Assembly: GCA_016715885.1 (NCBI GenBank)
Contig: JADJXL010000022.1
Span: forward strand, 11,588-75,587
DNA from: Polyangiaceae bacterium
Lineage (GTDB): Bacteria; Myxococcota_A; Polyangia; Polyangiales; Polyangiaceae
Reading direction: 5' to 3'
Length of the DNA: 64,000 nucleotides
Of this stretch, positions 38,165 to 44,383 are shown piece after piece. The first letter of the stretch is position 1. Every line of letters begins with the position of its first letter. The translations under genes were made by a program, and so were the position numbers. The notes beneath the pieces were generated by a model. The model made no database searches, had not been told where the DNA came from, and worked only from the letters and a program-made list of their open reading frames with translations.

Positions 38165-39994
38165 ATGCCTCAAATCTACGGAAACACGAACGGGCTCAGC
38201 CCCGCCGCACACAAGACACTCGAACGCATCTACCGCCGTAAAGTGCCCCTCGAGCACATCGCGACGCCGGAGCTCATCAAGTCGCTCGCTGAAGCATCCA
38301 AAGAGACGGGCCGCCAAGTTGGTGCTCTCGTTCATCGATCAGGCGCGATCGACTACGTCATCGTTGGTGATGCAACGAAACTCATGCTCCCCGACATCGG
38401 ACGCCTCCGCGCGGCCGAAGGACGCTTTCGTGCACTGCGTCTCGTCCACACGCACCTCTACAACGAGCCGCTCACGCGCGATGACATCGTCGACCTCGTC
38501 CGCCTGCGTCTCGACCTCGTCGCCGCCATTCAGCTATCCGCCGAAGGCGAAGCGAAGACGATGGACTACGCGTACAACACGCCGCCTTCTCCCGTCGCTG
38601 CGGATGAAGATCCACGCAACCGACTGCCTTACAGGCGCGTCGAGCCGCAACCGATCGGTCGCATCGATACGGACTTCGGTGCGCTCATCGCCGCGCTCGA
38701 AGACGAATTCGCGAAACGTTCACGCACCGTTTCGACGACGGCCAAAGACGGTCGAGCCATCCTCGTGCACGTCGCGGAAAAGTCGAAACAAGGCGCATAC
38801 ACGAACGCAGAGGAGAGCTTGCGTGAACTGTCCGAGCTGTCACGCACGGCCGGTGTCGACGTCGCCGACACGGTCATTCAGCTTCGCGAAAGGATCGACC
38901 CGCGCCTCATCGTTGGTAAGGGCAAACTCGACGACATCGTCTTGCGCGCGGCCGAGCTCGATGCGGCCACGCTCGTTTTCGATCGCAATTTGAACCCGTC
39001 GCAGGCTTCGGCGATCGCCAAACATTCGGATCTGAAGATCCTCGATCGAACGCAGCTCATTCTGGACATCTTCGCGCAGCGCGCCGAATCGGCCGACGGC
39101 AAGCTTCAAGTGGAGCTGGCGCAACTCAAGTACGCGCTTCCGCGTTTGTCCCAAAAGGACGATTCACTCTCGCGTCTCACCGGCGGCATCGGCGGCCGTG
39201 GCCCTGGCGAAACCAAGCTCGAAATTGGACGTCGGCGCGCGAAAGAACGCGTGAGCTTTCTCGAGGACGAGCTCAAGAAATTGAGCCGTCAGCGTGAACA
39301 ACGCAGGCGCAAGCGCTCGAGACAAGGCGTGCCGATCGTGAGCATCGTGGGCTATACGAACGCGGGCAAGAGCACGCTGCTCAATACGCTCACGGGTTCC
39401 GACACGATCGCCGAGGACAAACTCTTCGCGACGCTCGACACGCGTTCGCGAAGGCTGCGTTTTCCGGAAGAGCGTGAGGTGATCATCACGGACACCGTGG
39501 GCTTCATTCGCGAGCTGCCCAAGGACCTGTTTGCAGCGTTTCGCGCAACGTTCGAGGAAACGGCGGATGCGGATCTTCTGCTGCACGTGGTCGACGCGAG
39601 CGATCCTGCGCGGGATCAGCAGATCGCCACGACGGAGGAGCTGCTTGGGGAGCTTGGTCTGGCGTCGATTCCGCGCATCGTGGTGTTCAACAAGATCGAC
39701 TTGATCGAGCCGGGTGAAGCGCGAAGGCTGCTCGTGGGACGCAAAGATGCGGTGATCACGAGCGCGCGCGATCGCGAATCCACGCGCGCGCTGCTCGCCA
39801 TGATTGCTTCACGTTTGAAGGAACGATGGGAACGGTCGAGTTTGTCTGGGTACAGCAGTGCGACGGACGAACCGCAACTCGACGCGGGCGATGAAGACGT
39901 TGCAGCGGTAGCGATGCTGGAAAATTCGTCGCTCACGACGCTCGAAGAAATGCTGGCGAGCAAGCGGTATCGTCGGACCACGATTGGGGCCTGA
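38165..39994 (+). CDS. hflX: GTPase HflX (long form, about 170-aa N-terminal extension)
   Basis: HflX N-domain coiled coil with G-domain SIVGYTNAGKSTLLN, DTVGF, NKID. Confidence 0.85.
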   Translation: MPQIYGNTNGLSPAAHKTLERIYRRKVPLEHIATPELIKSLAEASKETGRQVGALVHRSGAIDYVIVGDATKLMLPDIGRLRAAEGRFRALRLVHTHLYNEPLTRDDIVDLVRLRLDLVAAIQLSAEGEAKTMDYAYNTPPSPVAADEDPRNRLPYRRVEPQPIGRIDTDFGALIAALEDEFAKRSRTVSTTAKDGRAILVHVAEKSKQGAYTNAEESLRELSELSRTAGVDVADTVIQLRERIDPRLIVGKGKLDDIVLRAAELDAATLVFDRNLNPSQASAIAKHSDLKILDRTQLILDIFAQRAESADGKLQVELAQLKYALPRLSQKDDSLSRLTGGIGGRGPGETKLEIGRRRAKERVSFLEDELKKLSRQREQRRRKRSRQGVPIVSIVGYTNAGKSTLLNTLTGSDTIAEDKLFATLDTRSRRLRFPEEREVIITDTVGFIRELPKDLFAAFRATFEETADADLLLHVVDASDPARDQQIATTEELLGELGLASIPRIVVFNKIDLIEPGEARRLLVGRKDAVITSARDRESTRALLAMIASRLKERWERSSLSGYSSATDEPQLDAGDEDVAAVAMLENSSLTTLEEMLASKRYRRTTIGA

Positions 39995-40077: not shown

Positions 40078-41334
<1,257 letters not shown>

Positions 41335-42045: not shown

Positions 42046-42175
42046 GGCGCCGTCAATAACACACGTTGCGCTTGTCTATGGTTTGTTTATAGATTATCAA
42101 ACATTAGACACACGTTGTCACAACGTCCGACGACGTGTCGTTGCGGTCACGCATACGAATTGAAGGAGGTCGGTC

Positions 42176-44383
42176 GTGGACAGAAGCAACCAAGCGCAAG
42201 CGGTCACTGCGATCAGTGCGACCGAACGCATCCCGGGCGCGACATTTCGCGCTGCGGTGGCGCGGTTTGTCGAGCGAAACCCAGGGACTTCACGCGAAGC
42301 GCTCGCACGCGCTCTGCGGCAGCGGCTAGCGACGCGCGGGATCGACTATCACCTGCGTACACTCAAGCGGCAGATCTCCGGCGCCGTCGCAACCATTCCG
42401 CCGGAAGTGCACTCCACGTTGCGCGACATCATTTCCGAGCTCGTTGGGGGCGATGCCGCTCATGACAATCATGAACGACTTGCGAGCATCGACGACGGTT
42501 TCGACATCGGCGCTGCGGACGTTCTTCCGATCTACATTGCCCGCGAACGAGCTCTCCCGCTCGCAAAGCTCTGGCTCTACCTGCATCCGGATCAGTCGAA
42601 GCGCGCGCTGGCGTTGCGTTTGCGCAGCGAGCTCGAACGTATGGGCATCCGCCTGAACATCGATTCGTTGCAAAGCATCCTCGCGGGCAAACAGCAGCTC
42701 GTGCGGCGCGAGATCAAAGACGTGCTGCTCGGGATGTTGCAGGCCGACGGCATCGAGAATGCGGAGCAGGCCGAAGCGCGCTGGAACGAATTGTCGAACG
42801 AGATCCACGCTTCGCACGAAGGTCGCTTCTTCGAGAACGCGCGGAAGATCCACGACGTCGCTTGCGCTTGGAAAGTCGTCCACAAAGAACCGTCGTCGCG
42901 CAAGCTTGCATTGCGGCTCAAGGAACGCCTCCGTGAACGCGGGATCGAGATGGGTTTGCCCCACATCCAGAAGCTCGTCGACGGCCGCGCTCGGCGAGTT
43001 CGTCATGGCGTAGCGACGGCCATCGAAGAGATCTTGCAACTCGATATGGAGGCGCAGCCCGCTGCCGTGCCGACACCAGCGGCATTGATTGCCAGCGAGC
43101 TCGACTTGGCGTGGGTGCGGGCCGAGCCGATTGCGGCGATGGCGCAGAAGTACGTGGCGGCCAATCCGGGCACGACGATGCGCAAGCTTTCGATCCAGAT
43201 GTCGCATGTCGTCGAGCGGCTTGGTTATGCGACGAGCCCCAATACGATTCAGCCGATCCTTGGTGGTCACAAGAAAAAGACGCGCGGTTTCGTCTATCGC
43301 GCGATGTTGGAGATTGACGGTCAGTCCATGACGCCTGTGCCGATCGAGCACGTGATTGGGCATGCCGCGCGGCGAGATCGCGAGCGCAAGGCGCAGCCGT
43401 CGGCATCGGATGAAGCGCCTGCATCATCCGATCCTCAGCCACAGCCGGAGCCAATGCCAGCGCCCAAGCCAATGGTTCGGCACGTCGCCGAAGATGCTCC
43501 TGCGCCACAATCCGCCACGCGTTCGACGTTGGCGGCGTATCGCTTCGCCATTTCGCGTTGTCAATCGCTCGACAAGGCAACCGAGCTCGAGCTTGCGTGG
43601 CGTTATCGACGGGACGGCGACATCGCCGCGGCCCATGCGCTCGTCGAAAGCCATTTGCAATTCGTCGTGAAGGTAGCGTCGCAATTCCGAGGGTACGGGA
43701 TGCAGCTCGCGGATCTCGTCGAAGAAGGAAACCTCGGGCTCCTCGAAGCCGTGCGTCGATTCGAACCGTCGCGCAATCTTCGTTTCAAGACGTACGCCAT
43801 TTATTGGATACGTGCGTTCGTCGTGGAACACCTTTTGCGTGAATGGAGCATCGTTGGTGGCGGCAGCGGAGCGCTCGTGTCACGCACATTTTTTCGATTG
43901 CGTCGAGAACGAGCACGACTCGAATCATTGCTCGGCGAACACGACAGCACGATCGACGCGGCCCTTGCCAAACGTTTTCACACGTCCGAGGATGCCATTC
44001 GCACGATGACCCAGCGCGTGGGCAGCCGAGATACGTCGCTCGATGCGTCGCCGGGCGGAGACGGTCCTTCGCTTTTGGATCTGCTTTCGGATCCGATGTC
44101 GGATCCGGAAGTTCAAACGGCAACTGCGCAGCGCAATGCATTCGTGCGCAGCGTGGTGGACGATGCGCTCGAATCATTCGATTCTCGCGAACGGCTCATC
44201 GTTCAAACGCGGCTCTTTGCGGGCGACGATGAAGTGAGCCTCGCCGATTTGGGCAGGCGTCTCGGCGTTTCGCGCGAACGCGTGCGGCAGCTCGAGGAGC
44301 GCACGAAGTCGAAGTTGAAGAGCGCTTTTGAAGCGGTGGCGAACCAATCGCAATATTGCGGTGTCGAAGCCTTGTGTGCTTGA
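42176..44383 (+). CDS. Sigma-70 family RNA polymerase sigma factor (RpoH-like regions 2-4) with an about 450-aa N-terminal extension of four tandem 58-aa repeats
   Basis: AGGAGG lies 5 nt before GTG 42176. The C-terminal 280 aa read LVESHLQFVVKVASQFRGYGMQLADLVEEGNLGLLEAVRRFEP...YAIYWIRA (regions 2.1-2.4), followed by a region 4 HTH. Confidence 0.8.
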   Translation: MDRSNQAQAVTAISATERIPGATFRAAVARFVERNPGTSREALARALRQRLATRGIDYHLRTLKRQISGAVATIPPEVHSTLRDIISELVGGDAAHDNHERLASIDDGFDIGAADVLPIYIARERALPLAKLWLYLHPDQSKRALALRLRSELERMGIRLNIDSLQSILAGKQQLVRREIKDVLLGMLQADGIENAEQAEARWNELSNEIHASHEGRFFENARKIHDVACAWKVVHKEPSSRKLALRLKERLRERGIEMGLPHIQKLVDGRARRVRHGVATAIEEILQLDMEAQPAAVPTPAALIASELDLAWVRAEPIAAMAQKYVAANPGTTMRKLSIQMSHVVERLGYATSPNTIQPILGGHKKKTRGFVYRAMLEIDGQSMTPVPIEHVIGHAARRDRERKAQPSASDEAPASSDPQPQPEPMPAPKPMVRHVAEDAPAPQSATRSTLAAYRFAISRCQSLDKATELELAWRYRRDGDIAAAHALVESHLQFVVKVASQFRGYGMQLADLVEEGNLGLLEAVRRFEPSRNLRFKTYAIYWIRAFVVEHLLREWSIVGGGSGALVSRTFFRLRRERARLESLLGEHDSTIDAALAKRFHTSEDAIRTMTQRVGSRDTSLDASPGGDGPSLLDLLSDPMSDPEVQTATAQRNAFVRSVVDDALESFDSRERLIVQTRLFAGDDEVSLADLGRRLGVSRERVRQLEERTKSKLKSAFEAVANQSQYCGVEALCA

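Follow-up and report, generated by a model that had tools for sequence, protein, structure and literature searches.

Why should a sigma factor of the RpoH type carry several hundred residues ahead of its conserved domains, and what could such an extension do? The question is raised by a stretch of 64,000 nucleotides from a Polyangiaceae bacterium (contig JADJXL010000022.1; hereafter the window), in which a complete open reading frame (ORF) with a GTG start, 42176..44383 on the + strand, encodes 735 amino acids (aa) plus stop: a four-repeat module, a disordered tether and an RpoH-like sigma domain. Its product is identical to MBK9264486.1, recorded as 'sigma-70 family RNA polymerase sigma factor [Polyangiaceae bacterium]'. 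We found that the fusion is genuine and conserved in the genus Polyangium, that its module is no one-off but a member of a rare family without annotation, and that in several phyla the gene for this module closes or adjoins suf/Mrp/Rrf2/glutaredoxin clusters for iron-sulfur (Fe-S) assembly. Our preferred reading, to which we assign a probability of about 0.42, is that the protein would be a sigma-32-type factor with an on-board DNA-targeting array, inherited from an Fe-S-linked regulator lineage.

The fusion and its four repeats

A genome scan places the window in a Polyangium-type myxobacterium. The gene has the same synteny in nine Polyangium genomes, in the order HflX, Pro-rich secreted protein, SirC-like protein, sigma gene, 223-aa protein, Omp85 and large secreted protein. 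In eight of the nine it encodes a continuous fusion of 735-753 aa, and the continuous frame is present in cultured P. fumosum DSM 14668, P. jinanense SDU13, sp. 15x6 and sp. y55x31. Two metagenome proteins, P0005 and P0038, have the same fusion and are cut at contig ends, P0044 is a full-length relative of 737 aa, and the 90%-identity cluster of the window protein includes a 735-aa member from an independent Logan assembly. The original prediction had named a sequencing frameshift as an alternative, in which a sequencing or assembly error has attached an upstream gene to rpoH, and some records do look that way: the close homologues P0001-P0004 are only 423-446 aa long and have no sigma domain, P0006 is visibly frameshifted, and the sigma part is missing from one Polyangium locus (L011). 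However, the short homologues stand on contigs of 3-8 kb and are probably truncated, and the frame is unbroken in the eight genomes and in the independently assembled proteins listed above. A free sigma factor made from an internal start is also unlikely, because the sole internal Met (aa 437) has no Shine-Dalgarno sequence and is not conserved among orthologues. Moreover, the repeats are 62-84% identical among orthologues versus 8-72% for the linkers between them, which argues for selection on the module and against an inert appendage. With the sigma domain at 74-83% and the tether at 19-40%, the module and the sigma domain are under purifying selection of about equal strength. The artefact and internal-start explanations are refuted for practical purposes by the conserved continuous frame and the Met437 evidence, and we give them almost no weight.

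In Polyangium sp. 6x1 (L011:5920-7762), the module is kept as a 467-aa ORF, about 900 bp of sigma-coding sequence are absent and the next conserved gene directly follows; this locus is either a natural deletion that left a stand-alone module or an assembly error.

On sequence grounds, the C-terminal part is classed as an RpoH-like group 3 sigma factor, as had been predicted. It spans regions 1.2 to 4.2 (aa 449-720, 43520..44335, + strand, as are all features of the gene below), delimited by NCBIfam and an RpoH structure-sequence alignment, and contains Sigma70_r2 (aa 489-557, nt 43640-43846; Pfam E=1.6e-16) and Sigma70_r4 (aa 664-715, nt 44165-44320; Pfam E=2.2e-10). The top NCBIfam models are RpoH models: TIGR02392 rpoH_proteo gives 234.1 bits over aa 451-719, under its curated cut-off of 323.1, PRK06596 gives 231 bits, also under its cut-off of 241, NF005143 gives 231.3 bits against a cut-off of 241, and NF005693 gives 205.1 bits against 315. 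The best match among solved structures is E. coli RpoH, chain 8hkc_E (HMMER, E=5e-40), covered from residue 18 to 284 of 284. Since the scores fall under the curated RpoH cut-offs, the label 'RpoH-like' is defensible and strict RpoH equivalogy is not demonstrated. The RpoH box, Q(R/K)(K/R)LFFNLR, lies between regions 2.4 and 3.1; here a diverged equivalent, VSRTFFRLR (aa 568-576, 43877..43903), aligns to QRKLFFNLR of 8hkc_E with 4/9 residues identical (F, F, L, R).

The module and the sigma domain are joined by a Pro/Ser/Ala-rich tether (aa 407-448, 43394..43519), predicted to be disordered, with a predicted local distance difference test (pLDDT) score of ~37-43 in a full-length AlphaFold2 model that reaches pLDDT 85.0 and a predicted template modelling score (pTM) of 0.55; its low identity among orthologues is accompanied by indels. 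Past region 4.2, a C-terminal tail (44336..44380) ends in a genus-conserved ...EALCA, with LCA in all orthologues (LVA in L006 and P0005) and a tail length that differs by 12-14 residues. Presumably this ...LCA end resembles a degron of the ssrA 'LAA' type.

The N-terminal module consists of four homologous repeats. Repeat 1 (aa 16-93, 42221..42454) has an isoelectric point (pI) of 11.3, 62-84% identity among orthologues and, in the AlphaFold2 model, strand 18-20 and helices 21-34, 40-53, 60-68 and 76-91. Repeat 2 (aa 118-191, 42527..42748; pI 10.3; 72-79% identity) is modelled with strand 120-122, helices 123-136, 142-155 and 162-169, strand 175-177 and helix 178-189. The same succession is predicted for repeat 3 (aa 217-294, 42824..43057; pI 10.3; 66-78% identity), with strand 219-221, helices 223-236, 241-254 and 261-269, strand 274-276 and helix 277-292, and for repeat 4 (aa 311-383, 43106..43324; pI 10.2; 72-83% identity), with strand 313-315, helices 317-329, 335-349 and 355-362, strand 368-370 and helix 371-380. 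The unit is thus ~75 aa long, a β-strand and a helix preceding the 'hP(G/D/E)' motif. All four repeats are basic (pI 10.2-11.3), the linkers between them are acidic (pI 4.1-4.5) and the whole module has a pI of 9.75. Because these acidic linkers separate the units, the repeat period is ~100 aa and the units do not follow head to tail as the 58-aa tandem copies first described. The motif starts, which had been put at about 30, 140, 250 and 350, lie at 35, 137, 237 and 331, the last two having been placed 13-19 residues too far along.

Self-BLASTP of aa 1-470 returned no internal repeat, a matter of sensitivity, since Smith-Waterman scores against shuffled sequences and hhalign both detect the repeats. 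Among the ~100-aa segments, five of six pairs outscore all 500 shuffles (z of 6.0 for S1/S2, 6.5 for S1/S3, 13.2 for S2/S3, 10.0 for S2/S4 and 4.5 for S3/S4), and S1/S4 is weak (z 2.5). The claim of four homologous repeats is upheld by profile-profile comparison of unit profiles cut from a 38-sequence family alignment, in which five of six pairs reach probabilities of 94.5-98.7% (R1/R2 97.3%, R1/R3 94.5%, R2/R3 98.7%, R2/R4 97.7%, fifth pair 96.7%) with E-values of 8e-8 to 2.5e-16, and R1/R4 only 31.6% (E=5e-4). The four units from 55 sequences form a near-gapless alignment over ~74 columns with the consensus LAxxWLxxxPxxSxRxLAxxLxxxLxxxGxxxxxxxLQxxLxGxxxxVRxxVxxAxxxxL.

Repeat 4 holds the most conserved motif of the family, NTIQPILGGHKKKTRGFVYRAML (general form GG[HW]KK[KR]TRGF), with Q359, G364, K366, K367, R370 and R375 invariant or nearly so. 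At the helix-3 position, a Gln is conserved in repeats 2-4 (Q166, Q265, Q359) and repeat 1 has basic R61 and R65; a Gly cap follows in all four repeats, and then a conserved Arg in repeats 3 and 4 (R276, R370). Gln and Arg are typical DNA-contacting residues. No Cys or His of the module is conserved across the family alignment. With this alignment as input, AlphaFold2 gave a confident model of aa 1-420 (mean pLDDT 84.5, pTM 0.61), in which the module is predicted to be four units of β-α(14)-α(14)-α(8)-β-α(12-16) plus helical linkers.

The module family and its Fe-S assembly neighbourhoods

A word-indexed search found 42 module relatives, and an exhaustive search of 1.84 billion cluster representatives with a hidden Markov model (HMM) found 179 proteins at E <=1e-3, 117 of them at <=1e-30. 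The rarity that had been claimed for such sigma factors therefore holds in a stronger sense, as only 179 clusters in 1.84 billion carry the module. Over the module, identity between the window protein and 37 family members is 34-76%, and the repeat-4 motif, used as a scan pattern, recovered 23 loci. With taxonomy taken from record titles, and as recorded for metagenome-assembled genomes (MAGs), the family ranges over Myxococcota, Acidobacteriota, Planctomycetota, Acidimicrobiales and Woeseiaceae. No model in Pfam, NCBIfam, PHROGs or PADLOC covers the module, and IMG/VR holds no relative of it; without a match in PHROGs, PADLOC or IMG/VR, a phage or defence origin is not supported. A search of 5.8 billion proteins with the unit profile returned only short fragments of the same family and no wider superfamily, and literature searches found no description of such a sigma extension or of a suf-linked regulator of the module type.

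Family lengths are bimodal, at ~400-520 aa and ~730-917 aa, and looking for the repeat in other proteins, as the original prediction had proposed, showed the module both stand-alone and fused to RpoD-like sigma factors and WhiB. Among 36 long members, Sigma70_r2 occurs in 31, r4 in 30, r3 in 27 and r1.2 in 19, region counts by which most fusions are to RpoD-like sigma factors. RpoH-like fusions are a minority (P0005, P0038, P0044, P0086, P0122, P0139 and P0156), the RpoD-like and RpoH-like sigma parts being only ~30% identical, and two members are fused to WhiB (P0014 and P0017). Stand-alone module genes were confirmed on long contigs. Five of them (L023:5956-7239, L024:5956-7248, L025, L026:5962-7266 and L017:804-2126) end in a four-Cys motif, KCLTKSCVYPAVREGLCRACL (C-x4-C-x10-C-x2-C), one of them from a Myxococcales MAG and the others from Acidobacteriota; this tail could bind Zn or an Fe-S cluster, which would parallel the WhiB fusions.

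Other stand-alone modules (L014:5947-7512, L016:5968-7416, L020:5974-7413 and L021:5833-7551) share a C-terminal helical tail, …F.KLAALRAEKLYG(I/V)S.EEA…. The segment ahead of this tail is 'AYLR'-like and similar to the beginning of sigma region 1.2; it may be what is left of a former sigma fusion. Three of the RpoH-like fusions, L032:642-2339 (P0156), P0122 and P0139, are shorter (490-565 aa) and apparently have about two of the four repeats; P0156 adjoins a pst phosphate-transport cluster, not Fe-S genes.

Outside Polyangium, Fe-S assembly genes (suf, Mrp, Rrf2, glutaredoxin-rhodanese, IscA) lie near the module gene in 13/14 distinct genome loci, and in the metagenome loci L027, L028, L030 and L031, L032 being without them. 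The order sufB-C-D-S-(nifU)-DUF59-[iscA-rhodanese]-module, sometimes with Mrp next, recurs in L013/L015 (near-duplicates), L016, L019, L023, L026 and L028. By tblastn and Pfam, the neighbours of module genes include Fe-S carrier ATPases of the Mrp/NUBPL type with DUF59 and DUF971, Rrf2, glutaredoxin-rhodanese and MarR. An unbiased Pfam census of 118 neighbours at 17 loci, with ORFs called by a simple codon-position GC-frame filter, is led by FeS_assembly_P (9 members) and NUBPL/Mrp (7), followed by Aminotran_5, SUFBD_core and Rhodanese (6 each), MarR_2 (5), Fe-S_biosyn and Fer4 (4 each), and Rrf2 and Sigma70_r2 (3 each). In addition, a ferredoxin gene is next downstream of a WhiB fusion, and on either side of L031, an RpoH-like fusion from outside Polyangium, lie genes for IscA, YggX and a radical SAM protein and two of the Rrf2 type. 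Stand-alone modules also occur near separate sigma genes, as sigma-Mrp-module in L014 and as module-Rrf2-sigma in L020.

Possible roles and the upstream region

Under the preferred reading, the module (aa 16-383) would form a compact, basic nucleic-acid-binding array, most likely one that targets DNA, and the flexible tether (aa 407-448) would let it anchor the sigma factor or holoenzyme at sequences outside the -35 and -10 elements. Such an anchor would act as a built-in activator, narrowing or redirecting promoter choice. The Polyangium protein would then plausibly couple a sigma-32-type stress regulon to Fe-S, iron or redox homeostasis, because Fe-S cluster biogenesis appears to be the ancestral setting of the family. 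The module is repeatedly joined to domains directed at RNA polymerase (RpoD-like sigma, RpoH-like sigma and WhiB), and nucleic-acid targeting would be its most economical role because it fits the sigma, WhiB and Cys-tail partners alike.

Several observations weigh against this reading. No helix-turn-helix (HTH) family of Pfam recurs among 38 module members: HTH_31 matches 1/38 (E=0.0086), and the commonest weak match, HTH_HVO_0163_N, occurs in 5/38 (best E=0.0011, under its cut-off). PDB profile searches with the whole module and with the unit profile gave as their sole match a 29-residue local similarity to the DEP domains of DEPTOR. The HTH-like character first proposed for the units thus survives as a reasonable suggestion about the fold, drawn from the AlphaFold2 model, and not as demonstrated membership in an HTH family. 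High pLDDT in the R2-R3 and R3-R4 linkers suggests a compact body, in which case some of the 'recognition' helices may be buried. A repeat-4 motif that hardly varies from phylum to phylum would be compatible, too, with a conserved partner protein, for instance RNA polymerase. No DNA motif common to the phyla was found 5' of module genes. Finally, neither the 64-kb window nor the Polyangium loci within ±6 kb contain suf, Mrp, Rrf2, glutaredoxin-rhodanese or IscA genes, the neighbours of the window gene being HflX, the secreted Pro-rich protein, the SirC-like protein and Omp85; the Fe-S link for the window protein therefore comes through module homology alone.

The 29-residue match was judged insufficient for homology to DEPTOR DEP domains, and a Foldseek search of PDB gave nothing significant.

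Does the module rather act on the sigma factor itself? As the main rival of the DNA-targeting reading, it may be a built-in autoinhibitory or anti-sigma-like domain in the position of region 1.1. It would fold onto domains 2 and 4 of the sigma factor, or keep it from binding core, and be released by a signal, which could be proteolysis as in pro-sigma factors, a partner protein, or the Fe-S or redox status. In RpoH-like and RpoD-like fusions alike, the module indeed precedes region 1.2, and Sigma70_r1_1 is detected in none of them; the stand-alone modules near the separate sigma genes of L014 and L020 have the classic sigma/anti-sigma layout. The long tether, predicted to be disordered, would permit fold-back or expose a cleavage site; the retention of the module without a sigma part in Polyangium sp. 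6x1 implies that it has a function of its own; and fused extensions that regulate sigma factors are established in extracytoplasmic function (ECF) sigma factors (PMC7826278). However, the module is basic whereas region 1.1 is acidic, the Pfam and NCBIfam scans contain no known anti-sigma domain, and a sigma-specific inhibitor can hardly explain the fusions to WhiB and to the short four-Cys tail, or the use of RpoD-like and RpoH-like partners alike despite their low identity. At ~380 aa and conserved as the sigma domain is, the module also exceeds what known pro-sequences need. We regard autoinhibition as possible, if rather unlikely.

The Fe-S neighbourhoods and the repeat-4 motif bear on a further explanation, in which the module is a protein-protein adaptor or sensor that binds an Fe-S factor (Mrp/ApbC, SufT/DUF59, glutaredoxin-rhodanese or IscA) and reports cluster supply to the attached transcription domain. 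In several phyla the module gene co-occurs tightly with genes of the Mrp, SufT, glutaredoxin-rhodanese and IscA types, often directly adjoining them in one operon, a near-invariant motif is what a conserved protein partner would lead one to expect, and the local similarity to DEP domains, winged helices of protein and membrane interaction, may be relevant. Against this, the module has no conserved Cys or His with which to sense a cluster directly, and in Polyangium it is well conserved although its gene lies away from Fe-S genes. An adaptor role is therefore improbable in our judgement.

Carried to the whole family, the DNA-targeting reading would make the module a new class of transcription component for Fe-S homeostasis: an array repeatedly joined to RpoD-like sigma, RpoH-like sigma, WhiB and a Cys4 tail, giving 'one-component' sigma factors with their own upstream-site recognition and placing a sigma-32-type stress regulon of Polyangium under Fe-S or iron control. 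This generalization we offer only tentatively and consider doubtful. Regulation of group 1-3 sigma factors usually lies with separate proteins (anti-sigma factors, chaperones and proteases), on-board domains being best known from ECF sigma factors. Here a large, well-folded domain absent from Pfam stands N-terminal on RpoH-like and RpoD-like sigma factors, and is joined to WhiB, in several phyla. If it targets DNA, these sigma factors would have a built-in, activator-like anchor and choose promoters by another logic; as a sensor or autoinhibitor, the module would open a new route from Fe-S status to RNA polymerase. Either way, the module provides material for the definition of a new domain family and a testable handle on how suf genes are regulated in Myxococcota, Acidobacteriota, Planctomycetota and Acidimicrobiia, groups with few known regulators.

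Upstream of the window gene, a Shine-Dalgarno sequence read from the DNA, GAAGGAGG (42162..42169, + strand), ends 6 nt 5' of the GTG start, and the block GGAGGTCGGTCGTGGA shows no variation across 10/10 orthologous upstream regions. Between the divergent SirC-like and sigma genes, a repeat search found an AT-rich, 18-nt imperfect inverted repeat, TGTCTATGGTTTGTTTAT / ATTATCAAACATTAGACA (42073..42110), whose TTGTCTA/TAGACAA arms are kept in 10/10 Polyangium upstream regions. The pattern TTGTCTA-N(10-40)-TAGACA matches once in the window and not at all in 100 shuffles, and the TTGT/TAGACAA element was not found 5' of module genes in other phyla, being specific to Polyangium. This inverted repeat may be an operator or promoter element. 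The upstream regions of L007-L012 contain additional TTTGT(A/C)(C/T)A copies.

The operator core of Myxococcus xanthus RisR is GAC-N7-GTC (PMC9973013), and a candidate at 42107-42119 (TAGAC-ACACGTT-GTCAC) was examined and rejected. It is absent from 9/9 orthologous upstream regions and the core pattern has 30 matches in the window, so the resemblance is most likely due to chance.

Two further genes upstream of the sigma gene have features of their own. The HflX-type GTPase (38165-39994, + strand; 609 aa), always two genes upstream of the sigma gene and 79-89% identical across Polyangium, has GTP-bdg_N from residue 216 and a ~215-aa N-terminal extension without a Pfam match. The gene at 40078-41334 (- strand) encodes a secreted-looking protein of 418 aa, also without a Pfam match, with an (AAKP)n-like N-terminal repeat and ~28 consecutive prolines that appear as a long G-run on the + strand.

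Comparison with known systems

With E. coli RpoH (sigma-32, 8hkc) the window protein shares regions 1.2, 2 and 4 and a remnant FF-LR box, its C-terminal 290 aa aligning to residues 18-284. It differs from canonical RpoH (~285 aa) in the 448-aa N-terminal module and tether, the conserved C-terminal ...LCA tail, scores under the cut-offs and a box with only 4/9 residues kept. The units may recall the HTH folds of λ-repressor-like (Cro/CI/XRE) and POU-specific/HNF-1/CUT domains, without membership in those sequence families or a significant Foldseek match; in the model, each unit has one more β-strand, at its N-terminus, and a short β-bridge, and the four units appear packed with helical linkers into a single body.

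Region 1.1 of sigma-70 is acidic and roughly 80-100 aa long. The module stands at the same place, N-terminal to region 1.2, and its RpoD-like relatives have no detected region 1.1, but at 380 aa and pI 9.75, without a Sigma70_r1_1 match, it is unlike that small, acidic region. MzaA of the anti-phage MZA system (NF041931, a 726-aa model) is of like size and layout, with a sigma-70 domain at the C-terminus and a long region ahead of it. The match, however, is confined to the sigma part (NF041931 100.7 bits against a cut-off of 800; PADLOC PDLC02203 66.7 bits, aa 485-716), the N-terminal module has no PADLOC match and the context in the window is one of housekeeping genes.

Among Fe-S regulators, the module family shares operons with those of the RisR/IscR (Rrf2), SufR and WhiB-like types, and some members are fused to WhiB, yet the module resembles none of the Rrf2, ArsR and WhiB folds and has no conserved Cys ligands. 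In M. xanthus, the suf operon is risR-sufBCDSUT, described without a module gene (PMC9973013); L016 and L019 have the same backbone with the module gene appended after sufT.

The closest conceptual likeness is to ECF sigma factors with fused regulatory extensions, in which an activity-modulating domain is likewise carried on board. Such extensions are mostly C-terminal (SnoaL, TPR, Cys-rich), as in ECF41, ECF42 and ECF238, whereas N-terminal ones are rarer and generally shorter, as in BldN with its pro-sequence and in SigC of Mycobacterium tuberculosis, whose extension is proposed to block DNA contact (PMC7826278). Unlike these group 4 factors, the window protein belongs to group 3, with relatives like groups 1 and 2, and its 380-aa, four-repeat N-terminal module has an unrelated fold; no ASD, zf-HC2, RskA, SnoaL or TPR domain was found in the Pfam and NCBIfam scans. 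The four-repeat N-terminal module, with its distribution over RpoD-like, RpoH-like and WhiB partners and its association with Fe-S operons, is not covered by the libraries and literature that we searched; extended sigma factors as such are a known concept, for which ECF extensions, region 1.1, pro-sigma factors and MzaA are the precedents.

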